NCBI GenBank assembly: GCA_049424145.1
Contig: JBMSSC010000018.1
Span: 1-29,039, forward strand
Direction of reading: 5' to 3'
Length of the DNA: 29,039 nucleotides
Source of the DNA: Bdellovibrionia bacterium
Lineage (GTDB): Bacteria > Bdellovibrionota > UBA1018
Notes under the pieces: generated by a model
Databases searched by the model: none
Told to the model about the DNA's origin: nothing
The model's input: only the letters and a program-made list of their open reading frames with translations
Shown here: one piece after another, positions 1-24,346 of the stretch
Position numbering within the stretch: position 1 is the first letter of the stretch
Layout of the letters: each line of letters opens with the position of its first letter
Position numbers and translations under genes: made by a program

Positions 1-102
1 CCTCAGTCGCGCCCTGATACTGCCTCAGCTCCAAGTACCCCATCCTCCAATCCGAGTGCTGACTCTAAAACAGCAGCACCGTCACAAGGAGGAACTCGAT
101 GA
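1..102 (+). CDS. 3' end of an upstream operon gene (Pro/Ser/Ala-rich tail), truncated by the window edge
   Basis: Frame 1 is open from base 1 (PQSRPDTASAPSTPSSNPSADSKTAAPSQGGTR*). Its TGA (100-102) overlaps the next ATG (99-101) as ATGA, with AGGAGGA upstream. Confidence 0.7.
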   Translation, partial: PQSRPDTASAPSTPSSNPSADSKTAAPSQGGTR

Positions 103-1985
103 GGCTTCTCAGGCTTCTCCTCCTCGGCTCGATCTTGGGTTTAACCGCTCTTCCCCCTTGGGGCTCAACCGGGTTCGCATCGACTGATGATTCTTCAGTG
201 GTCGTTCGAGATTTGAACACAGCCTTAGAGTGGCAGAAAGTGAATCTCGAGGATCGTCTTCAAGCGAAGCTGATTAAGGCTATTAACCCAAGTATTCCGG
301 GTCAGTTTTTTATTGTGAATGTCAATTTAGAGCTCAAGCAAAAGCAAGACGACGTGGGAGATAGTACCGATGACTCGTCAGATCAGCTCGATTCTCCTCC
401 ATTGTTAGGTAAACTTGACTTGGAGGCGCCCAAGTTTCGGGAGAATAAAAAAGGCGAAGACGAGGATTCAAATATCTTTAAAAACATTCAAAAAGTAAGA
501 GTTAATGTCATCTTAGATCGGTCTGTGACCGAGGCAAAGAAAGAAGTCATTAAGAAGATCATTACTCCTGTGATTAGCTCTATCGGAGCTGAGTTACCCG
601 CTCTGGTCATTGATCAGGCTGAGTTGATCTCAGCAGAGCCTCAGGATCTCAAAAAGTGGCTCTACGATTTTAAGCAGCCGCTCGTTCTTTTAATTGTCGC
701 TTTGATTTTCGCCTTAGTGGTGATTTTTATATTTAATGGTTACCGGAAAATTGAATCCAGGAGAATCTCCATCCTTGAGTCTCAGAATAATCGAGCTGAA
801 ACCGAGGCCCAAACGCGGATTGAGAGAGAAACGGCGGAGGCGGAGCGAGCTGCAATCGCTTCCTCTGGATTAGGAGATCCACAAAAAGGCACTCTGGAAG
901 AAGGACGCCATCGAGAGGGTTTTGAAAAGTTTAAGATCTTATTGAAGGAATCGCCTGAGAAAGCCGCAGCTTTGGTGAAGCAGTGGGTGAAGGCTCCCGG
1001 TCGAGGCTCCTCTGAAGCGCTTGCGGTTCTGCCTCAAGAGTTAAGCACTGAAGAGATTCTTCTCGTATTCAAGCACATGAGCATGGACGATCGAAAGTCG
1101 TGGAGAAAGCTGCTGAGTCCTAACGTAGATCAAGCGACTCTAGCGGTTGCCTCACGGTTCATCTTCTCTCAAATTGTTGAGAGTCTACTGACGCCGCCTC
1201 CCATGATTAACGATGAGCTCCGTTCAATGATCTCTGAACTCAGTATCCCTGAGTGCATTGAAATTGCTTTACAGGACGCCGAACTGGGCGGTCTTCTAGT
1301 TAACATTCTCCCCTCCATGGAAGTGGGCAGGATGTTCTCTTTGATGAACCCTGAGTTAGCTAATACGGTCACCATTGCGAGTCTAAAGTTTTCTGAAGAA
1401 AGCATCCGTTTACGATCGAATGATCTGAAAGCGGCAATTGAAACCCTTAAGGGTAAAAGAAAACCCTCAACCGCTCCTTTTGTTGATGGAGCTACGGAGT
1501 TATTCAAGCACATCGGACCAGAAAAAGAGAGTCCCATCTTAGGTGCACTCATTGAATCTCAAGAGTTTGATTTACTCAATTCAGCAGTTCACCAATATTT
1601 TCCGGCGGAGTTAGTTTTTAAGTTACCCCCCAGGGTCTTAAAGCTCTGTCTGGATCGTTTGCCGATTCAAAAAAGAGCAGATTTTATACTCTCAACCGAT
1701 GAGGAATCTCAATCAATCCTACTGAACTCAGTCGGAAAGCCCGGGTCTAAGGTTCGTGATGTCATTGATGTGGAGGTTCAGCAGGCTAAGGAAGATGAGA
1801 TCCGAATGAAGAGGTTGGAGCGTAATAAAAGCGTTCTTTTAAAAGAGTTTTTGGATGTGGTGAGGCTTTTGATTCGAACGAATCAAGCCATTGAAGAACA
1901 AGCAGATGCCGTCATTGATGTTTGGCTCTCGGAAAAAACTGGGGGTCAAATTCAAGGGAGTTCTTATGCAAAAACATCGGCTTAA
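99..1985 (+). CDS. Putative FliF(RBM3+TM2+C-helix)-FliG fusion rotor protein
   Basis: Signal peptide (aa 1-27). RBM3-like split fold: LEDRLQAKL..IVNVNLEL, then an acidic insert, then IQKVRVNVILD..IKKII. One TM helix (aa ~195-212). FliF C-terminal-like motif PEKAAALVKQW (aa 286-296). Then FliG N/M/C-like helical segments, including YFPAE at the MFxF position, SKVRDVIDVE at the torque-helix position and FLDVVRLL. Same operon as motAB. Confidence 0.75.
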   Translation: MRLLRLLLLGSILGLTALPPWGSTGFASTDDSSVVVRDLNTALEWQKVNLEDRLQAKLIKAINPSIPGQFFIVNVNLELKQKQDDVGDSTDDSSDQLDSPPLLGKLDLEAPKFRENKKGEDEDSNIFKNIQKVRVNVILDRSVTEAKKEVIKKIITPVISSIGAELPALVIDQAELISAEPQDLKKWLYDFKQPLVLLIVALIFALVVIFIFNGYRKIESRRISILESQNNRAETEAQTRIERETAEAERAAIASSGLGDPQKGTLEEGRHREGFEKFKILLKESPEKAAALVKQWVKAPGRGSSEALAVLPQELSTEEILLVFKHMSMDDRKSWRKLLSPNVDQATLAVASRFIFSQIVESLLTPPPMINDELRSMISELSIPECIEIALQDAELGGLLVNILPSMEVGRMFSLMNPELANTVTIASLKFSEESIRLRSNDLKAAIETLKGKRKPSTAPFVDGATELFKHIGPEKESPILGALIESQEFDLLNSAVHQYFPAELVFKLPPRVLKLCLDRLPIQKRADFILSTDEESQSILLNSVGKPGSKVRDVIDVEVQQAKEDEIRMKRLERNKSVLLKEFLDVVRLLIRTNQAIEEQADAVIDVWLSEKTGGQIQGSSYAKTSA

Positions 1986-2577
1986 GATGCTCTTCACTAG
2001 CCTGTTAATGGCTTTATCAGTTGTACCTGTTGCCCAAGCAGCTCCCTTCTTGGGCTCTCAATTTCATATGAGGTTGGGACTTTTAAGTAGCAGCTTCTAT
2101 GGACCTACAACGGGTTCAAACTGGGTGCCTTATACGTTTGACCTGGAGTATGAGATCTTCTCCTCGAATCGAAGTTCTTACACCATTCGATCCATTCTTT
2201 CTTTTGATATCAGCACTTCTCGCATGGCGTATGCCTTTACAGGATTAGGGCGAAGGTACTACCTGAATTCCAGCGGATTAAGATATGAGCAGGAAAGCGG
2301 CATCAGTGGAGATCGCGTCACGACGATTCCTCGGTTTCGAACTTATGTGGGCGCTAAGCTTGGAGTTTCCCAAGTTCGGGTTAAAGATTTTGGACCGGCT
2401 CTTCAGATTCCAAGCACCCTATTTGACCTAGGCCCTGATTTAGGGGCCATTTATCAGATCACTCCTTCGCTAGGGGTGGAGATGAATGCAGGAGCCTCCT
2501 TGGGCTTAGGCTTTTCATCTGTTTCGGTCACTGGGATCTCTTATTACTTATTTTTGGGGGGGAGTTATTTTTTCTAA
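1966..2577 (+). CDS. Small outer-membrane beta-barrel protein (about 8 strands)
   Basis: Likely start ATG 1966 after AAGGGAG. Signal peptide ends AQA. Alternating amphipathic strands rich in Gly and aromatic residues. C-terminal GGSYFF resembles the BAM beta-signal. Confidence 0.75.
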   Translation: MQKHRLKMLFTSLLMALSVVPVAQAAPFLGSQFHMRLGLLSSSFYGPTTGSNWVPYTFDLEYEIFSSNRSSYTIRSILSFDISTSRMAYAFTGLGRRYYLNSSGLRYEQESGISGDRVTTIPRFRTYVGAKLGVSQVRVKDFGPALQIPSTLFDLGPDLGAIYQITPSLGVEMNAGASLGLGFSSVSVTGISYYLFLGGSYFF

Positions 2578-2604: not shown

Positions 2605-3405
2605 TTGAATTTCAAATCAATTCTCGCATTTATTTTAGCGGGTGCGGTTCTCTTTTACGGAGTTCTTGAATCCGGGAACACTACGATTTTTCTCAACACT
2701 CATGCCATGTTGATTGTTTTTGGGGGCAGTGTTGCTGCAGGATCGATCTCGTTTCAGATCGATCGAATCTTCATGATGTTTCGAGTGTTCGTCAAAAGAG
2801 TGATTCAGGGTAGAACTCAGGACTATGTCACGCTCATTAGACAGCTCATGTTGCTAAGTGATGCCTATCGAAAAAAGTCAGCCGACCTAGAAGTTCTGAT
2901 CGACTCGAGTGAAGATTTATTTTTAAAAGAATCATTTTTACTCATGATGGATGAAATCCTAGATGAAGAGACTTTAATTCGGGTTTTAAGGACACGGGTC
3001 AATACCTTCTATCAGCGTCAGATGGAAGAGATGATAAAGTTTAAAACGGTCGGGAAGTACCCTCCTGCATTTGGACTGATGGGGACCACCTTGAGTATGA
3101 TTACGCTTTTACAGAAGCTGGGTCAGGCAGGCGGCCAAAAGGTTATTGGTCCTGCAATGGCCTTGGGATTAGTAGCCACCTTCTTTGGACTGGCTCTGTC
3201 TAACCTGGTTTTCAATCCGATTTCCGAAAATCTTCAGGATAGCGCTAGGGAAAATAAGACGAAAAACATGATTATTGTTGAAGGAATTCGTCTGATTCTT
3301 CAAGGTACCAGTCCCGTGATTCTAGCAGAGGAGCTCAACTCATTTCTCTTACCCAGTGAGAGGATTGACTGGAGAAAAGTCGAAGGATTGGGGAAAACCG
3401 CATGA
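2605..3405 (+). CDS. motA: Stator A subunit MotA/PomA
   Basis: TTG start. Motifs IVFGGS, YRKK..DLE (charged rotor-facing helix), PPAFGLMGT and GPAMALGLVATFFG..NLVFNPI. Confidence 0.93.
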   Translation: MNFKSILAFILAGAVLFYGVLESGNTTIFLNTHAMLIVFGGSVAAGSISFQIDRIFMMFRVFVKRVIQGRTQDYVTLIRQLMLLSDAYRKKSADLEVLIDSSEDLFLKESFLLMMDEILDEETLIRVLRTRVNTFYQRQMEEMIKFKTVGKYPPAFGLMGTTLSMITLLQKLGQAGGQKVIGPAMALGLVATFFGLALSNLVFNPISENLQDSARENKTKNMIIVEGIRLILQGTSPVILAEELNSFLLPSERIDWRKVEGLGKTA

Positions 3406-4184
3406 GCGATCCCAATGAACTCAGATTATCCTTGGCACGAAGTGAAGGCCTCTTCAATGAGGCAAGTGAATTGGATTCCTTCCACGAGTCCACCGATTCA
3501 AACGAAGAACCTTGGCTCATCTCTTATGCCGATTTAATGACTCTTCTTTTTGGTTTTTTTGCGATGCTGTTTTCCTATGTGAGCCTGGACGATGATGCGA
3601 GTGTGAAAGTCAACAAGGAGCTGGTGAAGTACTTTGGCGGTGTGTATGTGTCCCCCGCCCAAAAGTTGACTGAAGAAGTGAAAGATCAGTGGTCCAAAGG
3701 GCCCTATAAAAAAGAGATGGATGTGAAGGTTCAAGAGGATGGACTAGAAATTAGCTTTATCACCTCCCTACTCTTTGAACCGGGGAAAGCCAATCTTCTT
3801 CCAGAATCATTAGCTCCTTTAAAAGTCTTGATTCAGCTGATTAAAGATGCAGAAAAAGGCACAGAGGTGAGAGTTGAAGGTCATACCGATGACAATCCCA
3901 TTTCAAGCTCCGTGTTCCCTTCAAATTGGGAGTTAAGCTCAGCTCGTGCAGCTGCAATTGTACGCATGTTTCAGTCCGAGGGATTTCCCGAAGAGAGGCT
4001 CTCACTTGCGGGCTATGGGGCAAGCAGGCCTGCTTATCCCAATCGTGATTCGAGCGGAGAAAAGATTGTTGAAAACCAGTCACTCAATCGACGAGTGGTG
4101 GTGAAGGTGATTCTTCCTAAGGGTCAGAAAAAGAGCGTTCCGCTCCCCGTAAGAGAGATGCCTGGTGGAAAAAATGGAGAATAA
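3402..4184 (+). CDS. motB: Stator B subunit MotB/PomB with OmpA-like peptidoglycan-binding domain
   Basis: WLISYADLMTLL carries the conserved ion-binding Asp. Also GHTD, FPSNWELSSARA and NRRV. ATGA overlap with motA. Confidence 0.95.
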   Translation: MSDPNELRLSLARSEGLFNEASELDSFHESTDSNEEPWLISYADLMTLLFGFFAMLFSYVSLDDDASVKVNKELVKYFGGVYVSPAQKLTEEVKDQWSKGPYKKEMDVKVQEDGLEISFITSLLFEPGKANLLPESLAPLKVLIQLIKDAEKGTEVRVEGHTDDNPISSSVFPSNWELSSARAAAIVRMFQSEGFPEERLSLAGYGASRPAYPNRDSSGEKIVENQSLNRRVVVKVILPKGQKKSVPLPVREMPGGKNGE

Positions 4185-4192
4185 AGATCTGA

Positions 4193-5263
4193 GTGATGTT
4201 GGAAAAAAAGGAAAGTGGCATGTGGAGAACCAATAAAGGATGGATTTTGATCTTCAGTGTTTTTTTTCTTGCCTCAGTAGGTCTCTTGCTTCCAATTTTA
4301 AAGACCAATCCAGTGGATTTAGAAAAACAGCGGCTTGAGAATCTCTTTGAACAAGACCGCAAGATACTGAAAAAAAAAGACGCCACTGAGTCTCAAGTTT
4401 ATGCAGCTCTGGTGCGCCTTGCAAAAGTCCATGACCCACTTGCGCTTGAGTATGCAATGGAGAGAAAGGCAACGGCATCTTCTTTTTTAAAAAAAGCATT
4501 GGCTGAGGTATTTGGATTTTTTGACACTCCTGAGACGCATCAGGGACTTTTGGATCTGAGTCGGGATTCGAATCTCGATGTGAGACTCGCCGTGGTTTCA
4601 TCCCTGACCCACTCACAGCTTCCTAAGAGGGAGGAGCTCTTAGGTCGTCTCTTGGAAAATGAGTCCGCACAGCCCGTTGAGCGAATTACCATCCTTGCAA
4701 CGCTCATCCAGGTGACTTCTTCTGCGGAGTTGAGAAAAAAAACAATTGAGCAGCTCCTCTCGGTGATGAGCACTCATGGAGAGATTGAGGTTCCCCGTTC
4801 GACTTTGATTTTGGTGGTTAACTCAGCAGCTGTGAGTCCTGAGATTCAGGAGTTTCTGAAAAAGATTTTGGATCAGCGAAAGTTCCCAGCCCTGGGGGGG
4901 CTTGCTGTTCGTCAGCTTGCAGCCTTAAGAAATCCTTGGTTGAAATCAAAAGCTCAGGACTTGTCGAAAAGTCCTGATTCCCAGGTCAGGCTTGCACTGG
5001 TTGAGAGTCTTCATTGGATCTGTCCAAAAGACCTATGGAGACTTATCGGTGACCTGCTTGTGAATGAAAAAGATCGGGATGTGCAATCGGCGCTTTTAGA
5101 TGAGCTTCAGCTCTTGGTCTCAAGATCCAGTATCCCTGAGGTGGAGCGAATCTTAAAGAATGCCAATTTGGAACACTCCGTTCAGCAGAGGCTCAAAGCA
5201 TGGGTCAATCAGGCTCTAAGGAAACAAACCGTTCAGCCCGCGTTCTGCGCTTCTGGGTCTTAA
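4193..5263 (+). CDS. Membrane-anchored HEAT-repeat protein
   Basis: N-terminal hydrophobic helix. HEAT-like units LSRDSNLDVRLAVVSSL, LSKSPDSQVRLALVESL and LVNEKDRDVQSALL. Starts 8 nt after motB. Confidence 0.8.
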   Translation: MMLEKKESGMWRTNKGWILIFSVFFLASVGLLLPILKTNPVDLEKQRLENLFEQDRKILKKKDATESQVYAALVRLAKVHDPLALEYAMERKATASSFLKKALAEVFGFFDTPETHQGLLDLSRDSNLDVRLAVVSSLTHSQLPKREELLGRLLENESAQPVERITILATLIQVTSSAELRKKTIEQLLSVMSTHGEIEVPRSTLILVVNSAAVSPEIQEFLKKILDQRKFPALGGLAVRQLAALRNPWLKSKAQDLSKSPDSQVRLALVESLHWICPKDLWRLIGDLLVNEKDRDVQSALLDELQLLVSRSSIPEVERILKNANLEHSVQQRLKAWVNQALRKQTVQPAFCASGS

Positions 5264-5540: not shown

Positions 5541-6218
5541 ATGGACTTAAGAAGTAAGGGTTTTTGTTTTTTACTCCTCTTTTTTGCTTTTCAAAGCTTA
5601 TCGGTTTTAGCCAGTGATGATCGCGTTGGAGATATTCGATACTCGATTTTATCTGAGGGACAGTTTCAAGCGCTTCATGGAAAAGACTGGGAGATTTTGC
5701 GTGGCCAGGAAGTGCCGCTCGACTCTCAGCTTAGAGAGTTTTGGAATGCACCGAACGTTCCTGATTCCCGAGGCGTATTTTTGAGGTGTGCAAATCAGAA
5801 TCGAGCCCGAGAACAAGGAAATCCAGAAGGTGATCTTGAGGTGGGAGCTTACCAAGCAGATCAGTTTAAGGAGCATAATCATGGTGGAGGAAATCACCAT
5901 CATCATACTTTCCTCGAGCTGACTGCTTCAAGAAACTCAGATGGAAATGTTCGTAACACAGTTGCTAACTATCCTCTTTATCAAAGTCCCGTTCAAACTA
6001 CGGACTCAGGAGAGATCATCAAGCCTGAAGGCGATCAGGAGACCCGTCCTCGTTGTGTCACCGTCAACGCCTTCATTAAAATTCAGGAGAGTTCCAGAAA
6101 CTTGGATGCGCGGGCCAACTCTCTGCACGACTTAATTGAGCGTTTGATGTCGTCTTCGGAGTTTCTTGATTTCATCAGAAATTCTATCGTTTCCAATTTA
6201 AAAAACTTTAAGCTCTAG
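5541..6218 (+). CDS. Exported phage tail-collar / tail-fibre-like protein
   Basis: Signal peptide ends SVLA. Collar-type motifs VGDI..W..LRGQ, VPDSRGVFLR, VGAYQADQFKEHNH and ETRPRCVTVNAFIKI. Confidence 0.75.
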   Translation: MDLRSKGFCFLLLFFAFQSLSVLASDDRVGDIRYSILSEGQFQALHGKDWEILRGQEVPLDSQLREFWNAPNVPDSRGVFLRCANQNRAREQGNPEGDLEVGAYQADQFKEHNHGGGNHHHHTFLELTASRNSDGNVRNTVANYPLYQSPVQTTDSGEIIKPEGDQETRPRCVTVNAFIKIQESSRNLDARANSLHDLIERLMSSSEFLDFIRNSIVSNLKNFKL

Positions 6219-12017: not shown

Positions 12018-12019
12018 CT

Positions 12020-13297: not shown

Positions 13298-14311
13298 TTA
13301 ATAGTTTTCAGAATTGAGTGGACTGACCTCGCCACTGGAATCGCGAGGGAAAAAAAGCTTGGATCCACTCAGGTTCAAAATCTCTAATTGATCAGAATGC
13401 ACGAGGTAGTTCATCTGAACGGGAGATTCAAGTCTTGTGGCTTGGCCTCGAATCACTCGCTTGGGAGCGCTGCTTCCTGAAACAGTGGAATTAAAAAATA
13501 AAATCTGATTTTTATCCTGATCTAAAATAGCTAGTTCTTGGTGTTCTGGGATGACGAGAATATCTTGAGCGCTGTTGATTTGGGTGAGATCTCCTGAGAG
13601 GGTTTTGAGCAGCGCGGTTTTATTTTTGTCTTTTTTCCCTTCAACGTCAGCCAGTCTTGAGAAAAATAGAATTTGAGATTTTTTTGAGTGGGCAATGATT
13701 AAGTCCTGTGAGTCGGCTGAGACGGCAAGTGTGGTGGCATCGATGAGACGGTGATTTTTGAGTACTCGCTTTGGCGCAACGTTTCCGGGGTAGCGGAGAT
13801 CAAAGGAGAGAACGAGTCCTCGGCGACTGTCGAGGATGAAAACTTCCTGATTTTTTAGGTCCAGGGCTAGAGCTGTTATGGTTTTGAGTTCGGTGTGGTT
13901 TCCTGCGATGAGTTTTCTTGAAGTCACCGCAAGGGCTGTTGGAGCCGTCTCGGCTGGTTGAGTCTGCTTAGTTTCAATCCAGATCATGTTTTTGTAACCC
14001 ACGATTCGAGTTTCTCCATCAGGGGACTTTTTTATGGCATGACCTGACGCTGCCTTGAGGGCTTCCTCGAAGCATTTTTCTGAGACAGCAGTCGGTTCTT
14101 TTTCATCGAGATACGTTTGAGCATTCTCAATGCAGATTTTGAGTCGTGAAGTGTTGAGGGATGGATCTGCTGCAAGAAGAAGAGAGGGAAAAGATCCGAT
14201 TAGTCCAACCCAGAGAAGAGCTGAGGCCAAGCGTTTAAAAGCAGGTCTCTTCATGGGTAATGAACTCAGTTTTAAGCTCTCATATTTCCTTTGTTCTCGG
14301 AGTTGAGGCAT
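13298..14311 (-). CDS. Exported NHL/beta-propeller-like protein
   Basis: Signal-like helix (start possibly 14254). Repeated blades GNVAPKRVL, GSSAPKRVIRGQATRLESP and LSGDLTQINSA with hydrophobic strands. Starts 20 nt after the giant gene. Confidence 0.7.
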   Translation of the reverse strand: MPQLREQRKYESLKLSSLPMKRPAFKRLASALLWVGLIGSFPSLLLAADPSLNTSRLKICIENAQTYLDEKEPTAVSEKCFEEALKAASGHAIKKSPDGETRIVGYKNMIWIETKQTQPAETAPTALAVTSRKLIAGNHTELKTITALALDLKNQEVFILDSRRGLVLSFDLRYPGNVAPKRVLKNHRLIDATTLAVSADSQDLIIAHSKKSQILFFSRLADVEGKKDKNKTALLKTLSGDLTQINSAQDILVIPEHQELAILDQDKNQILFFNSTVSGSSAPKRVIRGQATRLESPVQMNYLVHSDQLEILNLSGSKLFFPRDSSGEVSPLNSENY

Positions 14312-14331: not shown

Positions 14332-17300
14332 CTAAGGGCTTTGTCCTGTTAACGATTGAGAGACGCTTCCGCCCGGTGATCCACTGATGCTGAAATTACC
14401 TGAATAGGTTTGGGTGGGTCCGCCTGAGAAAAGAACTTGAACGGTACAGTATCCATTAGGAGCCAAGATTTGGTTGCTGCAGTTATCTGTGGGTAGGCTG
14501 AACTGGGTACCTGTGACCTGAGCGCTTCCCAGAGTTATTGGGACGCTACTGATGTTACGGATGAAGTACTCATGACTGAGGTAGCTGAATAAAGGAACAC
14601 TGCCGAAGGAGTCGGGAGACAGGAGAGGATTTCCAGCGTTGTCAGTGATCCTTAGCCCATTGAAGGGCACAGAGATGGCTGAGACTGAGAGGGTAGGTGC
14701 GGTGAGTTCAATCGTCTTGGTCTCAGGATACGTTGAGTTGAGTGTGCAGGTAGAAACACCGGTTGAGAGAGTGCTGGAACAGCTACTCTGAACGTTGGTG
14801 CTATTGGTATTGGTGGCTGAGAACTGTGGATTGATGCCTGAGATGGCGTTTCCGTAGGCATCGGTAATGAGAACCGAGAGCTGAATTCCTTGGCTGCCGT
14901 CTGCTAGGACTGGGCCGGTGCCGTTTAGGGGGCTTGAAGAAAGAGTACTCAATGAAGCTGCTGCGGGTTGAATCGTTTGAGTCTGCTGTGCGTTAGGGAG
15001 GCTCGAGGAAATGGTGAGAGTGGGGGATCCTGCGCGAGTGTCTTTGAAGTAAAATGAAGTCGAGTTTGCGGAGGTTAAAATCGAAGACTGGGTCACAGGC
15101 GAGCCTGTACAGCCTGATTGAGTAAAGAACTGAGCGGTTCCACTGGAGGAGCTGCTGAAGTTCAGAGTCATAGGTGCACTTAGGTTTGTCACGTTATTGT
15201 ATGCGTCTCGGGTTTGTATCGAGACCATGTTGGAGCATTGGCCGGCAGCCACTGGGCTTGCGGATGTAGTGAAGGCAAGCTGTGCGGGAGTATTGGCAAG
15301 AACATTGAATGCAGAGCTTGTCACGGGTGAGAAACCAAAAGAGGCAGCTTGATAGGTGTATCCAGTTCCTGTTTTATTGATTTTAAGATCACTGAATGTG
15401 GCAATCCCCTGGTCTGCATTGACACTGAGAGTGCCTAGCGCTGAAGCAGATGTGGGGTTGTTGGCTAAAGAGAGCGTAATTCCTTGGGTTGCTGAACTCA
15501 GAGTATTGCCATAGCTATCTTGGATCGCGACTTGAACTGAGGGGGTTATCACATTTCCCGCTAGAACCTGCGAGGGCTGAGTGAGGAAGCCTAACTGAGT
15601 TGCTGCAGCAGGAGTGATCGTGAAAGCAGAGCTGGTGGCGCTTGAGATCCCAGGGACTGAGGCCATGAGAGTATAGTTTGAGCCAATCTTTTGGATTGAA
15701 AGAGAGTTGAACGTAGCTTTACCATCACTGATGGAGGTCGCAACCGGGTTGGTTCCGACTAGCGTCGCCGAAGTAGGGTTGTTGGAGATGCTGAGGGTGA
15801 CATTGACAGGAGACGTGGTTACTGGGTTAGTGTAAGCGTCGTAGACTTGTACAACCGTATTGAAAGGAGTTCCAGCCGTAGCGGAGCTTGGAGGGTGAGT
15901 AATAAAACTCAGGCTACTTGGAGCAGCGGAGTCAATCGTTTCTTGCTGAGAGCCTGAGGAAAGCCCCCCTGTGCTTGCAGTGAGAGTGATTGGGCCTGCA
16001 ACGGTGGATTTGAAGTAAAAGCTGGCTGTACTGGTATTGCTAGGAATGGAAAGGTTACTGATTGCATCGGTGCAAGTGGAGTTTGAATAAAAGGAAACAC
16101 TGCTTCCAGCTAAGTTAATCGTTCGCGTTGAGGCGCTGAGGACTTCATTTGCATAGGCGTCTTGAGTTTGAAGCGTGGTAATACCTGAGCACTCTCCTGC
16201 ACGAATTCGTTGAGCAGAGGTGGTAAAGCCTAGTTGAGCAATCGCTCCGGGTGTGGCTGTTTGAGTGAAGAGAATAAAGGGAGAGGTGCCTGCCACTTGC
16301 GCGGGATAGTTGGGTAATGGAAATCCTGCACCGGCTTTTAGAATTTGGGATCCCGCAATAGTACCTAAAGTATATCTGGTTTTTGCCCGACCCTGTGCAT
16401 CGGTGGGGACGATTGCAGGGTTAACGGACCCTCCGCCCGACTGAACACTAAAAGTAATGGGCGTGTCTGCAACAGGGTTTAACCATCGATCTCGGACCTC
16501 AACTTCAGGGTCAATGGGAACAGCGGTATTGACCTCTGCTGTCTGTGCTCCTCCAGCGATTTGAAGCACATGATCAGGAGATGCTGCCTTAACAGTGATG
16601 CCAGGAGAAGGGATGTTGGTGCCCAGGGGAGTCGCTAACGTAATGACTCGGCCTGTTCCTGCCGTATAGAAAGTGCCTGAGAATTCTTTTCGTCCTTTCA
16701 CGAAAGAAGACGTTGCGGGGTTAACCACATTCGAATGGGCATCTGCGGCTGTTAAATTAATGGAGATGGAGCCATCGTAGGACAATCCTTCGTTCGCATC
16801 GTCTCCTTCGTTATTCCAATCATCAATAGCAGACACTTGAATATTAAACGCGCTTCCTGCCGTTTGAGGACTCGCAGAACCCAGGGTTACAACTCCCGTG
16901 TTGTAACCCTTGTTGAGGGATAGTCCTGGAGGTAGGACCACGGCTTTGGTGATGGTGTTATGTTTGACTCGAATTTCATTTGAGGCGACGCCATCGATCA
17001 GATTTCCTGAAGGTCCAATTGGAGTGAGGGTCCAGCCTGATCCGTGAGTTGAGGATTTTCCGAGCGTAACAGAAATGGTGGTCTGCCCATTGGAGAGGGT
17101 TTGTGCAGCGGGCATGGATGCAGCTGAATCTGAGGAGACAAAAGTCACTTGGGTGGTCTGATCATTGGTAACAATATTAAATTTGGAATCGGTTCGATAA
17201 ACGTTCACATTAAAAGGAACTCCTGCGGTTTGAATTGAGGGAGGTCCCGTTACGGCACCAGCGAAGGTTTTTTTCGCGCCTGAGAAGACTTGTCCTGGTA

Positions 17301-20300
17301 GAACGGCAATCGTTTTTCTATTAAGACCCATGCTCACAGTGAATACCTCAGAAAAAGATGAGGCAAGACCGCTTGATTGCGTTTCGATCTTGAAGTTAGA
17401 ACCTAAGGTGATGGGGGTGAGGGTGAATAGAGCCAGACCGCTTGAGAATTGTGTTGGGGTGGTGGGGTTTGCGTGTTCACTCGAGGGCTCATTATATGTG
17501 ATGCTCACAGAGTTCGAGCTTGAGGTGACTCGGTTATTAAATAGATCGACCGCATAGACGGAAGCGATAAAGTTACTATCGGTGGTGATTGGAAATGGAG
17601 TCCCTGATTTTCCTGTTGGGCTTCCTTGCTCAAAGGTTTCTCCTGGAAGGAGAGTGAGGGTGTGGTCAAGTGTAGCCGGTTGGACAGTATATTGACTGGA
17701 TTGCTGATTGTTATAGGAGCCGCCCGCTGCATTGAGTGTTCGAGTTGTTCCCGCAGTACGCGTTGTGACGGTGAATTGAACTTCCCCTGAGCTGAGAGAA
17801 CCAGAAGATGGATGCGTGTCGTAGGGGTCATTGGTTTCTAGTGAGATCGGAGTGGAGGGGACTGAGGATACCCGGTTGTAGTGATCATCGACTACAATGA
17901 CCTTGACTTGAAAAGACTGTCCCGCTGTTTTGGGATTGAGTCCTGAAGTCGGAAGAGCGCTGGTTAACGAACCAATAGCCCAGCCTTCAGAAAGAGTTTG
18001 TCCTAGGTCGGTTAAGACGGCGACCGTTTGAGTGGGAAGATTCGGGGTCACGGAATAGGTGGTGGATTGATGATTATTGAGACCTGAGGTAGCGGATCCG
18101 GTGGCTCTGAGGTTAGCCGAGCTTGCAATGTAGTTCTGAACGCTAAAAGTGGCGACGCCGGATGAAAACGCCTGAGCCGAAGGGCCAGGAGTGTGCGTGT
18201 CAGGGGCAGTAAGAGAGAGAGTACCTAGACCTGTGTTGAAGCTAGTGACGGTGTTAAAGTAGGGATCCACGGCTTTGACAGTAACAGTGAAATGAACCCC
18301 TGCAGTGACAGACGATGGGGAACCCTCTTTTGCAGACTCAAGGGTGCTTCTTCCTGCGACCAGAGATTCTCCGGGTAAGAGGACAACGGTTTGTGAGGCA
18401 GCGCCTGGATCGATATTAAAGAGGGAACTAGGGTTGTTAGAGGGCAGTGAGGCCGTGTTGGTGCATTGAATCGTATAGTTCGTCTTAGCGAGGCGATAAT
18501 AAACCCCTGAAAATTGGGCTACACCAGAGTTTAAAGTTTGAGTGGATGGGCCGGATGCATTGGGATCAGAGGGGTCATTGGTGAGGGTGACGCTGCCTGA
18601 GACCCCGGATGTGACGACGTTGAAATAGGGATCGGTCGCATAGGCGTTCACTTGAAAGGGATTTGTGGTGGTTAATCCCGTGCTGACAGGGGTGTTTAAG
18701 GCATTCTCCAAACTCGATGCTCCCTGCTTGAGTCCTGGTCCCACAACTGTTGCTAACGGGCCAGCTGATGAATCAGTCATTTCTGTGATGGCTTGTCCTT
18801 GACCGGGAAGAACTAAAACAATCTGTGAAGCTGCAGCCGGATTGACAGTAAACTTCGAGCTCGGCAAATTCACCGTGGAAAGAGAGGTGGCTGCGGAAAG
18901 CGTTTGATTTTTCCAAGCCGTTCTGGGGATAAAGCTCAGATTGATGACGCCTGAGGAGAAGTTCTGAGGAGCTAGAGTGACGTTGGGATCGGAGAGGTTG
19001 AAGGTGGCAGAACCGTTGTAACCCGAAACAGTATTGAATCCTTCATCTACGGCTCGGATCGTCCAGGAGGTGGACGTTCCAGCGGTGAGCGGGCTAATTG
19101 TTCCTGTGACGGCTGCAGAGGCGTTGAGTACTCCGGGTTGATAAGATTGACCAGGGCCGATAACGAGAGTTCTTGCAGGTGTCGTTCCAGCAATGACCTG
19201 GATAGACCTCTCTGATGAGACTGTGTTTGAGGTCAATTCTGTTGCAATAAGTTTAATGGTTTCTACCTTAGGGTATTTGAGATCAGAGAACGTGGCCACT
19301 CCTGCGGATACTACTTGACTCTTGGGTCCATCTAATAGTGAAGCAACTCCAGTTCCTCCGCTTAAAGAGACGGTGATTAACGTTTGATCATTTGTGGTGA
19401 TGACGTTGTTGAATCGATCGCGGATGCGGGCTGAAAATGAACTCATCGGAGTCTGATTGCTTGCGGTGTAAGTGGAGGGAGGATTTGGACTCCAATCAAC
19501 GTTGGCAATCGTGGGTTCAGGTAAAACGGTGACATGATCGATGTCTTGAGGAGATGAAAGAGTAGACCAAGCTCCCGCTTGGACGCTGAGTGTTCCGGTT
19601 TGAGTTGCGGTGATGGATACGCTGCCTAATCCTTGGTTCAGATTTCCGGTCACGCTTAGGTTCGCTGCTCCTGAAGTATCACTCGCGCTGGCCAAAGTGG
19701 TGGAGAGAATGTCTTGTCCACCGAGGTTGGATGAGAATTGAAAGGTAATGGTTTGATTTGCAGTGGCGCCTGAACTCACCGTATTTCCATAAGGGTCAAC
19801 GCCAGTAATGGAATACGTAACGGAGCTACCTGCGATGAGCGTTGGGGGAGTTGTCGTTGCAGGCGTGACCTTCATTCGTAAGTGGCTCAGAGGTCGGTTG
19901 CTGACGCTGAGGGATGCTAGAGTGGCTGTTTTTCCAAGTCCCGTGATCTGAATAGTGGGTGTGGTGGCTGAGTTATAGAGGATGAAATCAGGTGTGTTGA
20001 GGACTCCCCCGGTGAAGGTGTAGTTTCCATCGGCAGGCTTTTGGTCGATATAGGAAGGATAGATCGTTGGAGTTGAGCCTACGATGTTAAACGTGAGATA
20101 GGCTGCAGAGTCAAAAGTAGTGATCCGATTATTCTTAGAGTCTTGCATTTCAAGTCTCAAAGTAAAAGCCGTACCCGCAGTCGTACTCGGTGAGAGTGAA
20201 GCGTTACTCACCTGTGCTTGTGTTTTTAAACTGAAGTGATGAAATTCTCCTACTCCTACGGTGATGGTCCCAGTGGAGGAGCTGAGTCCGGAGCTAAGGA

Positions 20301-23214
20301 GGGCGGTCAATACTCCAGTGCCTGTATTTTGTGGATGAAATTGGATCGCCCCATGGGTTCCGGTTGAGTAAGTGGCCGCCACAGGACCTGTGATGAGAGT
20401 GCTTGAGCTCCAATTAATCCCTGAGAGAACTCCAATGTAGTTGAGTTCGGAGTCGTATCCCGTTGCGTAATAAGTGGGTTCGGAATCCGTTGTGAGGCTG
20501 ATGCTTGATGCTGTAATTATGGGATCAGTCTCTGCAGGCCCACTTCTTAGAGACAGTGTAGTTGGAGAGCCTGGAATGAGAGTGGGGACTAAAAAGTTTT
20601 TAACGGTAGGAGGCGAGAAGGCGGTTCCAGGGTTACAAAAAGGGCCTTGAGTGATGCTCGCTGGAGTACTGCAATGGGTTCCTGAAATATCACTGAGTGT
20701 GAGTCCAATTTGAACTGTATTACTTTGTTTTGGAATTTTTAGTCCGCTAATTGTTGCAACTCCGTTAGTGAAATTATAGGTGCCTGAAGTTGGAACAATA
20801 GGGGAAGTCCCCTGATTTGAAGCAGTATGACCTGTGACAAAAGCGTTCATGTAGTAAGACCCATTTAAAAGAACGAGTTGATTGGATGAATCACGTGCTT
20901 CAATGGTTAGGGTCAAAGGCCGAGTGACATCGATCGTGTTGGTGGGATTTGTGCCGTCTGAGATAGAAATAGCGAAGTGATCAGCGGTACTTGTTTGAGC
21001 GGTATAAAGGGTGTAAGCGCCCTGATTATTATTGGCAGAAGGGGAATACAGAGCCAGTGTTCCCGCACCTGCTGTGATTGGAGTATAAATCGCAGACGAG
21101 CCCGTGATGGGCGACGAGGGGGGCGAAGTCGCGAATTCTCCATCAAAGACCCCCGTGGTGCTCCACTGGGTATCCGAGGGTGAGGAGATCGTATTTCCAG
21201 CTGCATCGGTGAGTACCGCATAAAAAGTTCTTGAAGCCAGAGCAGATGAGCTGGGAGTAGCAGGGAGAGCCACACCAACGGCATCAAGCCAGTAGGGATA
21301 TCCATTGGCAACAGCATATTGGTCTAAAATAAATGACCCGTTGTTCAGTTGGTTGGAGTGAAGCTCGATTCGGGTTCCTGGTCCACGGTTGACTTGAATG
21401 ACTGGGGTCATCCCAGCAGGATTAAATGCGCTTGGAGTTCCTACAGGGGGATTGTTGATTTGCACTGAAATCTGAGGTTGTAGCGTGGGGTAATTGCCGG
21501 GATTTCCATTTCCATCTTGGTTGGCATAGTTTAGTGATGCGCTCAGATCAGCATTGGCGACACCGTTTAGAAAAGTTTGTTGATAGGTTCGACTACCACA
21601 GCCCTTCAGAGCTTCAATTGAAATTGAGGGAGGAAGATTTGCAGGGATCGAGCTTGGAGTATTAAAACTGGCGGGCTGATGAAATGTGTTATCACCTGAG
21701 AGCATGAAGCGGTTACAACCTCGACTCACGGGAGGGTCAGCTGAAGCATTTAAGAAGCTTGCTGTGATCTCAAAAGAGCCGGTAAATCCTTGAGTTCCGT
21801 CGTGATGAGCGATTAATGGGTTTCCCTTTGCATCGACAACGGAGATGTTGATTTTAAAAGGAACTCCTGCGGTTTCAAGTTGATTGTGCTCAGTGGTGAG
21901 GAGCACACCTTTCATTTGTCCAGGATTTACTCGGTAGCTTAAAAATCCGGTGAGTTGACTTGCAGAGGCTTGAATCCGAGCGGATCCAGTGAGATGGGGA
22001 GTGAGAACAATGGCAGGACCGATCAGGCTTGCACTGCCTGAAGGGGTTCCAATGTAGGGTAGAATTCGCGTGCCAGCGCTTCCTGCAGGGGCGCCAGGGA
22101 AGTCAGTTACAAGCCATGCGGCTTGCTGAGCATCGGAGTAGTAATTTCCGATCGAATCAACGATGGCGGCATAAATGGTGGTCTGAGGTTCATCTGTACT
22201 TCGAATGAGTTCTTCAGGATTTTGTATGGCCACTGCATCATCAGAGGTGGAGCCAATGGCATCGGCTCCTTTGGGTCCTCCAGGAGCCCGCGCAAAGACG
22301 ATTTTTGAGGCCGCCGCAGGTAAAACGGTCATGGGCATATTGAAAACAGAAACGTAGCCTCCGGGGCCGTTTCCAACGGAGAGGTAAGTGAGCTGACTGG
22401 AATCTGTGACTTGGTACTGAATTGGGGTGGTGCAAATGCCGCTTACGAAAACACAAGTCATCGTCCCTGAAGGCAAGCTGTAGTCGCTACTGGAGTTTCC
22501 ATTCCAAGCCCATGCGTGTTGGGATACTGAGTTCCAAGTGAGCGTGATTGGACCGGTAAAGTTTTCAATGACTTGGCCAAGGTTATCCTTGAGCGAAACG
22601 ATGAAACCAAATGGAACGCCCGCAGTTTCGATAAAATCATGGGTGGAGGTGAGACCAAACTGATAGGGCACGCCGTTATTGGCCGTTGCGATTTGAAAGG
22701 TGGCTTTACTTTCGCTCCCTCGTACTCGAGCTTCAATTAAAATGTTGAGCTTGTACTGATTGGGAGCTTTCACCTGAGTAGAAGCGTAACCGCTGGTATC
22801 GGTTGTGGCATGTGCTGTGATGAGCGTTGCCTGGGTATTGGTGAGCTCTGTGAAGTCCACTTGGGTGCCAGGAATGGCTGCTCCTGTGGTCGGATCCACA
22901 ACTCGGACTGTCAATGGGGCGTTGAAAAAAGTGTTTGCATAAGTGATCTGTTGATTTCCTGAAACGATCTGAGTTTGAATTCCCAGAGTTCCTGAGACCA
23001 GTGCTTCGTTGCCTAAGTAATTACAGCTGGACAGAATCAGGCTCAGAAGGCTGAGTACTTGAAAACTTAGGATCTGATCGATTAAGTGAGTCTGGAGGCT
23101 TTGCTTGACGCGTGAATGAAACCAAGCCCACTGAGTCAAGATCGATTGACCAAGCGCCCGGATTCCGCTGGGCGGAGACTGGTTTTGTCCGAAGCTGAGT
23201 TTCTTTTTTTTCAT
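14332..23214 (-). CDS. Giant Ig-like repeat surface protein / adhesin (probable lipoprotein)
   Basis: 2960 aa, rich in Ser/Thr/Gly. Lipobox-like LILSSC (Cys64). Many AG..F.V.V.A.D...N beta-sandwich modules and Big_1-like units. C-terminal ASH/choice-of-anchor-D-like domain (DNCSNQILAPNGYCTVQVLF). Confidence 0.85.
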   Translation of the reverse strand: MKKKKLSFGQNQSPPSGIRALGQSILTQWAWFHSRVKQSLQTHLIDQILSFQVLSLLSLILSSCNYLGNEALVSGTLGIQTQIVSGNQQITYANTFFNAPLTVRVVDPTTGAAIPGTQVDFTELTNTQATLITAHATTDTSGYASTQVKAPNQYKLNILIEARVRGSESKATFQIATANNGVPYQFGLTSTHDFIETAGVPFGFIVSLKDNLGQVIENFTGPITLTWNSVSQHAWAWNGNSSSDYSLPSGTMTCVFVSGICTTPIQYQVTDSSQLTYLSVGNGPGGYVSVFNMPMTVLPAAASKIVFARAPGGPKGADAIGSTSDDAVAIQNPEELIRSTDEPQTTIYAAIVDSIGNYYSDAQQAAWLVTDFPGAPAGSAGTRILPYIGTPSGSASLIGPAIVLTPHLTGSARIQASASQLTGFLSYRVNPGQMKGVLLTTEHNQLETAGVPFKINISVVDAKGNPLIAHHDGTQGFTGSFEITASFLNASADPPVSRGCNRFMLSGDNTFHQPASFNTPSSIPANLPPSISIEALKGCGSRTYQQTFLNGVANADLSASLNYANQDGNGNPGNYPTLQPQISVQINNPPVGTPSAFNPAGMTPVIQVNRGPGTRIELHSNQLNNGSFILDQYAVANGYPYWLDAVGVALPATPSSSALASRTFYAVLTDAAGNTISSPSDTQWSTTGVFDGEFATSPPSSPITGSSAIYTPITAGAGTLALYSPSANNNQGAYTLYTAQTSTADHFAISISDGTNPTNTIDVTRPLTLTIEARDSSNQLVLLNGSYYMNAFVTGHTASNQGTSPIVPTSGTYNFTNGVATISGLKIPKQSNTVQIGLTLSDISGTHCSTPASITQGPFCNPGTAFSPPTVKNFLVPTLIPGSPTTLSLRSGPAETDPIITASSISLTTDSEPTYYATGYDSELNYIGVLSGINWSSSTLITGPVAATYSTGTHGAIQFHPQNTGTGVLTALLSSGLSSSTGTITVGVGEFHHFSLKTQAQVSNASLSPSTTAGTAFTLRLEMQDSKNNRITTFDSAAYLTFNIVGSTPTIYPSYIDQKPADGNYTFTGGVLNTPDFILYNSATTPTIQITGLGKTATLASLSVSNRPLSHLRMKVTPATTTPPTLIAGSSVTYSITGVDPYGNTVSSGATANQTITFQFSSNLGGQDILSTTLASASDTSGAANLSVTGNLNQGLGSVSITATQTGTLSVQAGAWSTLSSPQDIDHVTVLPEPTIANVDWSPNPPSTYTASNQTPMSSFSARIRDRFNNVITTNDQTLITVSLSGGTGVASLLDGPKSQVVSAGVATFSDLKYPKVETIKLIATELTSNTVSSERSIQVIAGTTPARTLVIGPGQSYQPGVLNASAAVTGTISPLTAGTSTSWTIRAVDEGFNTVSGYNGSATFNLSDPNVTLAPQNFSSGVINLSFIPRTAWKNQTLSAATSLSTVNLPSSKFTVNPAAASQIVLVLPGQGQAITEMTDSSAGPLATVVGPGLKQGASSLENALNTPVSTGLTTTNPFQVNAYATDPYFNVVTSGVSGSVTLTNDPSDPNASGPSTQTLNSGVAQFSGVYYRLAKTNYTIQCTNTASLPSNNPSSLFNIDPGAASQTVVLLPGESLVAGRSTLESAKEGSPSSVTAGVHFTVTVKAVDPYFNTVTSFNTGLGTLSLTAPDTHTPGPSAQAFSSGVATFSVQNYIASSANLRATGSATSGLNNHQSTTYSVTPNLPTQTVAVLTDLGQTLSEGWAIGSLTSALPTSGLNPKTAGQSFQVKVIVVDDHYNRVSSVPSTPISLETNDPYDTHPSSGSLSSGEVQFTVTTRTAGTTRTLNAAGGSYNNQQSSQYTVQPATLDHTLTLLPGETFEQGSPTGKSGTPFPITTDSNFIASVYAVDLFNNRVTSSSNSVSITYNEPSSEHANPTTPTQFSSGLALFTLTPITLGSNFKIETQSSGLASSFSEVFTVSMGLNRKTIAVLPGQVFSGAKKTFAGAVTGPPSIQTAGVPFNVNVYRTDSKFNIVTNDQTTQVTFVSSDSAASMPAAQTLSNGQTTISVTLGKSSTHGSGWTLTPIGPSGNLIDGVASNEIRVKHNTITKAVVLPPGLSLNKGYNTGVVTLGSASPQTAGSAFNIQVSAIDDWNNEGDDANEGLSYDGSISINLTAADAHSNVVNPATSSFVKGRKEFSGTFYTAGTGRVITLATPLGTNIPSPGITVKAASPDHVLQIAGGAQTAEVNTAVPIDPEVEVRDRWLNPVADTPITFSVQSGGGSVNPAIVPTDAQGRAKTRYTLGTIAGSQILKAGAGFPLPNYPAQVAGTSPFILFTQTATPGAIAQLGFTTSAQRIRAGECSGITTLQTQDAYANEVLSASTRTINLAGSSVSFYSNSTCTDAISNLSIPSNTSTASFYFKSTVAGPITLTASTGGLSSGSQQETIDSAAPSSLSFITHPPSSATAGTPFNTVVQVYDAYTNPVTTSPVNVTLSISNNPTSATLVGTNPVATSISDGKATFNSLSIQKIGSNYTLMASVPGISSATSSAFTITPAAATQLGFLTQPSQVLAGNVITPSVQVAIQDSYGNTLSSATQGITLSLANNPTSASALGTLSVNADQGIATFSDLKINKTGTGYTYQAASFGFSPVTSSAFNVLANTPAQLAFTTSASPVAAGQCSNMVSIQTRDAYNNVTNLSAPMTLNFSSSSSGTAQFFTQSGCTGSPVTQSSILTSANSTSFYFKDTRAGSPTLTISSSLPNAQQTQTIQPAAASLSTLSSSPLNGTGPVLADGSQGIQLSVLITDAYGNAISGINPQFSATNTNSTNVQSSCSSTLSTGVSTCTLNSTYPETKTIELTAPTLSVSAISVPFNGLRITDNAGNPLLSPDSFGSVPLFSYLSHEYFIRNISSVPITLGSAQVTGTQFSLPTDNCSNQILAPNGYCTVQVLFSGGPTQTYSGNFSISGSPGGSVSQSLTGQSP

Positions 23215-23563: not shown

Positions 23564-24346
23564 CTAGCTCAGAGCCTTCTTCTGATCCTCAGAAGAGGTG
23601 AGAATTTCAAGCTTAATGCTGCTCGATCTATTTTTGATGTAATTTAATATTCTTGCCTCAGTCTCTAGGTCAATTCCCGCGATGATCTTCTCGATGCTTT
23701 CCTCCGAACCTCCGTCTGATGCAAAGCTCTCCTGATCCTCAAGAAGTTCAAGGGACTCCTGATCAAAGAGGCCGTGAAAACGCTGCTTGATCTTCTTAGC
23801 AAATCGCCATGCAGCTTGCTCAAGAGCCTTCTCAGGAATTCTCTCTAGCCTTGAAATATGGAGAATAACTTGTCGTCTGAGATCTGCAGAAAAGCAGCTT
23901 AAGAGCTTGCTCATCTCCTCAGTACTCCAATAGAGGGATATGAATGCAATTTGGGCTGGGTCTTCTTTGCCCAGAATTCCATTGAGCTCTTCGCTGGTGA
24001 GTTCCTTGAGGAATACAAAAGGGTCTTCAGGTTCAGTGGAGTCCCCATGAGTTAGGCTCTCGGATAAGAACGTGATGTAGACCTCCAACATGCTCTTGGC
24101 ATCTGAGGCATGGTTACTTTCACTGATGACCTCTTTATTGATTTCTAAGAGGTATTTCCATTGATGGGCAGGGATGCGGTCAAAGAGCTGTTTGGAGTAA
24201 TCCACGCCAATTTGGTTAAAAAAGACCAGCAGCTTTCTTGCCGATTCAGGCTGAGAAATCATCCTTCTTGCAGCCACTTGGCAGCTTTTGGGATGAGAGA
24301 CGCTCAGAGTTAAGATCTTGTCTGTGAGGTCCAAGACGGATTGCAT
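23564..24346 (-). CDS. Truncated FliG-like protein (FliF-C-like helix + FliG N + M, no torque domain)
   Basis: RKLLVFFNQIG..SKQLF (FliG-N-like). PFVFLKEL..L..ILGKEDPAQIAFI (EHPQ position). RRQVILHISRL and the GG linker DGGSEESIEKII. The protein ends before an MFxF or torque helix. Confidence 0.75.
   Translation of the reverse strand: MQSVLDLTDKILTLSVSHPKSCQVAARRMISQPESARKLLVFFNQIGVDYSKQLFDRIPAHQWKYLLEINKEVISESNHASDAKSMLEVYITFLSESLTHGDSTEPEDPFVFLKELTSEELNGILGKEDPAQIAFISLYWSTEEMSKLLSCFSADLRRQVILHISRLERIPEKALEQAAWRFAKKIKQRFHGLFDQESLELLEDQESFASDGGSEESIEKIIAGIDLETEARILNYIKNRSSSIKLEILTSSEDQKKALS

Follow-up and report, generated by a model that had tools for sequence, protein, structure and literature searches.

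The gene at positions 99..1985 of the + strand encodes a 628-aa protein which, judged from sequence profiles and a structure model, is a natural fusion of FliF and FliG. The gene lies near the beginning of the window, the whole 29,039-nucleotide stretch of Bdellovibrionia bacterium DNA that was analysed. It starts with ATG, is preceded by AGGAGG, and its start overlaps the stop codon of the upstream gene (ATGA). Profiles, the AF2 model and structure alignment describe the same order of parts: RBM3, a transmembrane helix and the C-terminal tail of FliF, followed by FliG. The protein fits neither FliF nor FliG as they are defined, because it lacks RBM1 and RBM2, the EHPQR motif and the Gly-Gly hinge, and its action is likely to resemble that of a flagellar rotor. 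We consider it probable that the fusion forms the rotor ring of a non-flagellar, MotAB-driven motor without a switch, which probably acts on a surface adhesin.

Architecture of the fusion protein

The query sequence alone gave no significant FliF or FliG match in Pfam or NCBIfam (Pfam returned only MgtE_N, E 0.25) and no relevant match among PDB sequences, the fusion was unmatched in a tblastn search against plasmids, and a search for related loci yielded a single locus. Five close relatives of the query were found, one of them named Bdellovibrionia bacterium, and the profile built from these six sequences collected 349 cluster representatives at E<=0.001. The A2 alignment comprises 123 rows, namely the query, four close relatives and 118 mostly full-length sequences among the 150 matches listed; it leaves out fragments and some long forms, and most of its members are 19-43% identical. 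In the comparison of the A2 profile with the PDB, FliG and FliF are ranked at the top (FliG-MC 3ajc, E 2.2e-9; 8umx, E 1.8e-4), and the FliF matches cover TM2, the C-terminal tail and the start of RBM3. As the hhalign reference, 31 canonical FliF and FliG proteins of Bdellovibrionota were aligned. Residues 36-303 of the fusion align with FliF 228-549 (P 86, E 4.8e-6), colinear with its RBM3, TM2 and C-terminal tail, and residues 389-578 align with FliG 125-310 (P 61, E 8.1e-5). No RNA run was among the sequencing runs listed for this DNA, and the contigs from three DNA sequencing runs show neither indels nor joints. None of the pieces listed spans the FliF/FliG junction, and the junction therefore rests on its conservation in the family.

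The AF2 model predicted from the 123-sequence alignment (pLDDT 85.7, pTM 0.56) is made up of a single domain of the type alpha-beta-(insert)-beta-alpha-beta, one helix in the membrane and a cytoplasmic portion that is helical throughout. The top 13 rows of a Foldseek search with this model are all FliG. VIA-align places full-length FliG, residues 3-329, over residues 301-608 of the model, and the FliG C-domain is matched over 89/89 residues at 2.3 Å (1qc7_B, Z 10.3). No MgtE-N or armadillo protein occurs among the structure matches listed, where FliG leads. The A2 profile has a weak sequence match to MgtE in the PDB (2oux, E 0.0017), which is expected because the repeats of MgtE and FliG are alike (PMC13023049, excerpt). 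The earlier note had read the protein as a natural FliF-FliG fusion and had named, as the case that would overturn this reading, a protein matching neither RBM3 nor FliG, or matching only MgtE-N or armadillo folds. The colinear profile matches to both proteins and the superposition on RBM3 and on full-length FliG bear out the fusion.

The N-terminal segment (residues 1-27, 99..179) resembles a signal peptide by hydropathy, and its cleavage was judged by eye only. In the query, no 19-residue window reaches KD>=1.6 and the segment ends in G-F-A; 71/123 members reach KD>=1.6, and the N-termini of 40 members were inspected by eye. The segment might also act as an uncleaved membrane anchor. It is followed by a single periplasmic ring-building motif of the RBM3 or S-ring type (residues 38-177, 210..629), in which the AF2 model has helix 43-62, strand 71-79, the insert 80-129, strand 130-140, helix 145-160 and strand 168-174. 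This motif superposes on FliF RBM3 with Z 11.7 at 2.5-2.6 Å over 90-92 residues (VIA-align). When the periplasmic domain was folded alone, the best three of 48,161 chains were FliF RBM3 (Z 11.5, 11.0 and 10.0), and the type III needle-complex chain 2y9j_Y scored below them (Z 8.6). Foldseek with the ring motif alone gave nothing at E<=0.001 and placed an Ohr protein first by E-value, but the TM score was higher for FliF RBM3 (Salmonella chains, 0.49-0.54 versus 0.37-0.46). RBM3 by itself forms a ring (PMC11739650). Since only 12-55 residues precede the helix of the ring motif in 123/123 members, RBM1 and RBM2 are absent.

The insert (residues 80-129, 336..485) occupies the position of the beta-collar of FliF. 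It has 50 residues in the query, with 14 D/E and 8 K/R, and contains the conserved motif KLG-x-EAP (K105 99%, P111 86%). Monomer models predict no strands in it, at low local confidence (pLDDT 42-64 over most of its length); the beta-collar, which stabilises the FliF ring, is thus not predicted in the fusion. Across the family the inserts measure 39-158 aa (median 69) with a median net charge of -2. A short acidic insert, as the earlier note had described it, is therefore found in the query and is rejected as a trait of the family.

The transmembrane helix, equivalent to FliF TM2, covers residues 194-212 (678..734) according to the PDB profile, hydropathy and hhalign; exactly one internal transmembrane segment is predicted in 100/123 members. 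The PDB profile and hhalign also locate the FliG-binding helices of the FliF C-terminus at residues 273-298 (915..992). Here PEKAAALVKQW (286-296) aligns with PNKAALILKEW of FliF. W296 is kept in 121/123 members, and a spacer of 7 residues precedes the first FliG-like helix in 120/123. The loss of RBM1 and RBM2, the presence of one ring-building motif and one transmembrane helix, and the direct passage of PEKAAALVKQW into the FliG-like part had all been claimed from the sequence beforehand, and all of them hold.

The FliG-like part begins with a shortened FliG-N-like segment (residues 302-364, 1002..1190), whose counterpart in the FliG of the same genome is longer by about 29 residues. This is the least sure of the assignments. 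The hhalign match is weak (E 0.019), the N, M and C repeats of FliG cross-match in hhalign, and the segment is recognised mainly by structure alignment, which puts model residues 301-303 on FliG 3-5. The FliG-M-like domain with helix MC (residues 372-453, 1212..1457) was delimited by hhalign and residue comparison, and the FliG-C-like domain covers residues 460-613 (1476..1937). The M and C domains follow in FliG order, and YFP 500-502 aligns with MFVF of the MFXF-type hinge. The position of the FliM-binding motif EHPQ is occupied by QDAE (residues 392-395, 1272-1283) according to hhalign and residue comparison; EHPQ is found in 0/123 fusion members versus 31/31 canonical FliG proteins. The torque helix was located by residue comparison at residues 551-565 (1749-1793). 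It contains SKVRDVIDVE, in which K551 is basic in 103/123 members, R553 in 109/123, and D554 and E559 are acidic in 120/123 each. K551 and E559 are the equivalents of R281 and D289, the residues of FliG that contact MotA (PMC6445934, excerpt). The equivalent of D288 is acidic in only 6/123 members, and that of R297 is kept in 62/123. The loss of EHPQ and the retention of the torque-helix charges, both noticed earlier in the query alone, thus extend to the family.

Two further changes concern the hinges. Immediately ahead of helix MC, 31/31 canonical FliG proteins require an insertion of 3 residues relative to the family profile; the short spacing is common to 121/123 members. A PAA deletion at the same hinge locks the Salmonella motor clockwise (PMC3091841, PMC11087270, excerpts). 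In addition, the Gly-Gly hinge after helix MC is replaced by Pro-Phe (P460 82%, F461 86%). Together these changes provide indirect, sequence-based support for rotation in one direction. The sister fusions aligned over this hinge also lack EHPQ but do not have the 3-residue shortening. It is therefore not general to all fusions; it is specific to the clade and no more than suggests a fixed direction. The AF2 model lies nearer to FliG chains in the CW state (rmsd 9.9-10.4 Å) than to those in the CCW state (17.5-18.0 Å), which in a monomer model with pTM 0.56 is a lead only.

The gene module and its stator

The neighbourhoods of 39 loci were compared; six of them are loci of the sister subfamily, the overlapping stretch L047 was left out, and the carriers are related and do not count as independent. 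They reveal a conserved Bdellovibrionota module in which a TPR lipoprotein, the fusion, a small barrel of the outer membrane, motA and motB are often joined by a giant surface protein. The TPR lipoprotein lies directly upstream of the fusion in 37/39 loci and the barrel is found in 36/39. The motA and motB genes are present in 27/39 loci and missing from the stretch fetched in 12/39; several loci without adjoining motAB have motA about 8-20 kb away. No flagellar genes (export gate, FliM/FliN, rod, L/P ring) were recognised at the loci, where the neighbours were clustered and some were scanned with Pfam.

In the window, positions 1..102 (+) encode the P/S/T-rich 3' tail of the upstream gene, likely the TPR lipoprotein. 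We infer that this tail joins contig C37, at whose end a homolog of the lipoprotein family (E 1e-61) runs off without a stop and whose upstream ABC genes are those of locus L001; the two contigs have no exact overlap. The fusion is followed by the gene of a small outer-membrane beta-barrel of about 200 aa with a C-terminal Phe (1966..2577, +, start at 1966 or 1987; OMP beta-barrel clusters, 0.97). A barrel of this size is probably too small for the passage of a protein; that it serves to anchor or carry the output is more likely. Then come motA (2605..3405, +), whose PomA/MotP-like product keeps R89 (Pfam, tree, residue comparison), and motB (3402..4184, +), whose product has a plug, the channel Asp and an OmpA domain (Pfam, residue comparison). 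A membrane-anchored HEAT-repeat protein (4193..5263, +), recognised by Pfam and neighbour clustering, is accessory in 6 loci. A toxin/immunity-like block, which is absent from the four closest syntenic loci, separates the operon from the giant gene. On the - strand, an NHL/beta-propeller-like secreted protein (13298..14311), found by clustering together with the HEAT gene and the giant gene in 5 loci and having an NHL, lactonase homolog in L037, lies beside a giant 2960-aa surface protein with Ig-like Big_1 domains and a lipobox-like LSSC (14332..23214; Pfam, clustering). A soluble 260-aa FliG-M-like protein (23564..24346, -; FliG_M 31.5 bits, no FliG_C match) occurs in 3 loci and is a possible accessory.

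The stator of the module is of the flagellar type, with plug, channel Asp and OmpA domain, and the channel Asp is kept in 30/30 module MotB proteins. In the module MotA proteins, Arg is found at position 89 in 24/29, and the equivalent of E98 is Glu in only 7/29. On the basis of its sequence motifs, we equate R89 with R90 of E. coli. In a quick tree, 25/27 module MotA proteins fall into one branch (SH-aLRT 96); one misassigned row in this tree, sep_L149, is a MotB-like frame and was ignored. The genome of the window, G000, has four plug-bearing motB genes, and both this genome and 5/5 other genomes tested possess, at a distance from the module, a further motAB pair with a plug. The MotA of this pair in G000, on contig C60, has a longer insert in its cytoplasmic part and clusters in the tree with stand-alone MotA proteins from three other genomes. 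We infer that the stand-alone C60-type pair is the flagellar stator, on the basis of its E. coli-like motifs and of the TGI4/TGI5 stator scheme (PMC12505986, excerpt). Not all extra motAB pairs belong to modules: 8/8 low-identity pairs (L177-L184) have no fusion within about 7 kb.

An ORF of at least 900 aa rich in S/T/G/N is present in 24/39 loci and absent from the stretch fetched in 15/39, compared with 2% of random 19.5-kb windows of G000, a control that favours long contigs in a genome having 10 other such giant ORFs in 2.69 Mb. The giants, which have Ig, FN3 or NHL domains, sort into several clusters unrelated to one another, and a lipobox-like motif, searched with a loose pattern, is found in 14/19 giants with the start codon in view. 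Judged by its conserved partners, the module is directed towards the outer membrane and a surface protein rather than towards a cargo in the inner-membrane lumen. By analogy with gliding and type IX machines, the giant surface lipoprotein may be regarded as the best candidate for the output of the module, an assignment that we hold with somewhat less than even confidence.

Relation to the flagellum and proposed function

The A2 profile matches 49/301 genomes of the phylum, including G000, and 48/48 of the other matching genomes have FlhA and FliG. In G000, fliF, fliG, fliM and fliP are located on contig C50, flhA on C175 and the flagellins elsewhere. The same genome has a second fusion of 750 aa on C87, apparently with two periplasmic repeats. 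The profile of such sister fusions finds many more members of 550-900 aa, in a tally of 168 that includes canonical FliG. Among 12 sister loci checked, 11 have motAB, 11 have the lipoprotein and 0 have EHPQ. Bdellovibrio sp. KM01 and SKB1291214 are named among the carriers of a sister module, and B. bacteriovorus HD100 probably has a second gene annotated as fliG, Bd3014, near motAB2. FlhA is found in 66/68 sister-fusion carriers, these being picked from the long ORFs listed. Two genomes, G232 (97% complete) and G071 (91%), have no match for FlhA, FliP, FliM, flagellin or the rod motif, yet both keep the sister fusion, with a plug-bearing MotB on the same contig. Independence from the flagellum is thus seen only for sister subfamilies and in two incomplete genomes. 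The suggestion of the earlier note that the ring has no type III export gate gains support from the gene context and from the sister modules of these two genomes without the five flagellar markers. In the ESM Atlas, similar FliG_C-bearing proteins of 500-720 aa occur in Balneolota, Elusimicrobiota, Bacteroidota and Myxococcota.

By comparison with the flagellar motor, we propose that the fusion subunits would polymerise into a ring through RBM3-RBM3 contacts and contacts between FliG M and C domains. The OmpA domain of MotB would bind peptidoglycan, and the ion flow through the conserved Asp would turn MotA, which would act as a cog against helix 551-565. The ring would not switch and would rotate in one fixed direction, because the FliM site is missing, the hinge is three residues short and Gly-Gly has become Pro-Phe. 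In the most speculative step, the giant Ig/FN3 surface lipoprotein would receive the work by way of the insert, the TPR lipoprotein and the barrel, and might be moved, deployed or retracted. Taken as a whole, this route of transmission through periplasmic insert, lipoprotein and barrel is tentative, its chances being a little short of even.

The constant presence of the barrel and the TPR lipoprotein, the absence of recognised rod or bearing genes from the module and the only partial retention of the stator-rotor charge pairs would also suit a transducer that does not rotate or makes short strokes. Here the fusion would be a fixed scaffold which MotAB pulls or twists, opening or loading an outer-membrane complex in the manner of ExbBD-TonB or TolQRA. 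Export or assembly of the giant lipoprotein would be an example of its task. We regard such a device as unlikely, since the stator is of the flagellar type with plug and OmpA anchor, and it is not obvious why a fixed scaffold would require the entire FliG torque domain and charge pattern that are conserved. A load or surface sensor, in which the ring-stator pair reports tension on the adhesin through stalling or the recruitment of stators while performing little mechanical work, is less likely still. In a sister module of the same genome, the fusion is directly followed by a 170-aa gene that, judged by its motifs, presumably belongs to a cyclic-nucleotide-binding-like family, and at L167-L169 and L186 a gene of 135-189 aa separates the fusion from motA. 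Stator mutations alter the lifestyle of B. bacteriovorus (PMC11323537, excerpt), which would fit a sensor too, but no conserved signalling gene adjoins the fusion in the clade of the query.

The motAB pairs of Bdellovibrio, patchily distributed, have all been treated as flagellar stators (PMC11323537, PMC11870529, excerpts), and FlhA is present in every other carrier of the query family and nearly every sister-fusion carrier. Both facts would agree with an accessory or alternative component of the motor of the flagellum, with extra stators and a ring mixing into or surrounding the basal body. We hold this to be very unlikely: no recognised flagellar gene lies beside the module, the stand-alone stator is of a different type in 6/6 genomes checked, G232 and G071 keep a module although no flagellar markers were found in them, and without EHPQ the principal site for FliM is gone. 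Stators of the module and the flagellum may still engage in cross-talk. A decaying flagellar relic or a chance look-alike of MgtE-N or armadillo proteins, which the insignificant Pfam/NCBIfam result for the single sequence might suggest, is scarcely credible. The 349 cluster representatives, the fixed junction spacing, the conserved surface charges and the colinear alignment with two flagellar proteins whose genes natively stand in this order all speak against it, and hhalign colinearity, residue conservation and structure superposition largely refute it. We therefore retain the rotor ring of a switch-less, MotAB-driven motor as the preferred reading of the fusion.

Comparison with known systems

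To our knowledge, FliG has been known only as a rotor protein of flagella. The fusion shares with the flagellar MS-ring and upper C-ring, driven by MotA5B2 or PomA5B2, the order of RBM3, TM2, FliF C-terminal tail and FliG M and C domains, the latter probably preceded by a FliG N segment, as well as the torque-helix charges and a plug-bearing, peptidoglycan-anchored stator. In contrast to flagellar FliF and FliG, it is one polypeptide without TM1, RBM1 and RBM2 and without predicted beta-collar strands; it lacks EHPQR, its N-M link is shortened and Pro-Phe replaces the Gly-Gly hinge. The partners in the module, namely the TPR lipoprotein, the barrel and the giant protein, also differ from those of a flagellar locus. 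SpoIIIAG, SpoIIIAH and PrgK/EscJ have the RBM fold in common with the fusion (Z 7.5-9.4, below FliF RBM3) but have neither a FliG part nor a stator. The gliding machines of Bacteroidota (GldLM-GldKN-SprB) and Myxococcus (Agl-Glt-CglB) combine a 5:2 ion motor with outer-membrane barrel and lipoprotein partners and a large surface adhesin. They are not known to contain a FliF/FliG ring, and their likeness to the module is an analogy only.

A covalent FliF-FliG joint is known from the laboratory fusions FliFGd-f of Salmonella (PMC6445934, excerpt) and FliFG of Vibrio (PMC11481574, PMC10941966), and the deletion fusion of FliF and FliG remains able to rotate, biased towards clockwise (PMC6445934, excerpt). 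The FliG variants dPAA and dPEV (PMC3091841, PMC11087270, excerpts) lack three residues before helix MC, as the natural fusion does. These constructs keep RBM1/RBM2 and the FliM site and act inside the flagellum, whereas the natural fusion is conserved across the phylum outside flagellar operons. In the literature covered, which takes in few subscription papers and supplements, only laboratory fusions and no natural FliF-FliG fusion system were found described. The parts of the module are known, and the module itself appears to be undescribed. It is conceivable, at odds slightly against, that rotary motors based on FliG include, with this module, a second class. This would be a direction-locked ring of a single protein with its own MotAB and without export gate or filament, which drives interchangeable giant lipoproteins via the barrel.

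The module, a natural unit of five genes, keeps rotor and stator and drops the export gate and the switch, so that the sufficiency of a FliF-RBM3/FliG ring with MotAB becomes testable. It also raises the question whether the flagellar motor's core can serve, or in the past did serve, separately from the flagellum. In Bdellovibrio-like predators, it may explain the 1-4 motAB pairs located outside flagellar clusters (PMC11323537, excerpt). If the proposal is true, the module would give the cell a new way of moving on surfaces, attaching to prey or secreting, and would provide a natural minimal model of the rotor-stator core of the flagellum.

Further modules in the source genome and related motAB loci

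The source genome (G000) encodes a second fusion of 750 aa (contig C87, 647–2896, minus strand), which apparently contains two periplasmic repeats and is accompanied by genes for a lipoprotein, a barrel-like protein and a cNMP-binding-like protein. Contig C91 of this genome ends in a cut motAB. Synteny in the sister-fusion loci L167–L169 suggests that the C87 locus continues into this motAB. A third TPR lipoprotein–motA–motB start is found at C160:2967–4572; no fusion gene was seen at this locus, which is cut by the contig end.

One conserved motAB pair, stand-alone and of the short, module-like type, is present in the genomes G058, G273, G101, G088 and G095 (L177–L179, L181, L184), and no fusion is located within about 7 kb of it. 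In L175 (G127:C142) the gene order of the module is reversed, and an adjoining 847-aa ORF contains a MotA-like part.

Other genes of the window

The HEAT and NHL genes adjoin in L001, L037, L059 and L062. In the window, a gene for an exoprotein of 1928 aa (6231–12292, plus strand) lies between them; the protein starts with a signal-like segment, its C-terminal domain is short and basic, and a 90-aa ORF follows the gene. The exoprotein gave no match in the Pfam scan; the two look like an interbacterial polymorphic toxin/immunity pair. The DUF6228 gene (12475–12867, plus strand), whose product weakly matches WapI immunity proteins in the Pfam scan, is a possible orphan immunity gene. A low-GC stretch (0.39) contains the gene of a secreted-looking 225-aa protein (5541–6218, plus strand), also without a Pfam match.

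At the right-hand end, a 666-aa protein (26240–28240, plus strand) combines an N-terminal part, weakly HAD-like in the Pfam scan, with a C-terminal domain to which the scan assigned no family. The open-ended ORF at 28808–29038 (plus strand) carries the motif GLDEHSFRR, which we take to indicate an ISL3-type transposase.

FliG-like proteins other than the fusion

Among the matches listed, many Bdellovibrionota genomes encode extra ORFs of 140–260 aa that match FliG_C only.

Upstream of the giant gene, the window encodes a soluble FliG-M-like protein (23564–24346, minus strand), which lacks a FliG_C match and has EDPAQ at the EHPQ site, the position of the FliM-binding motif. Its homologs are present at L037 and L059. 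This protein could serve as a ring spacer or brake.
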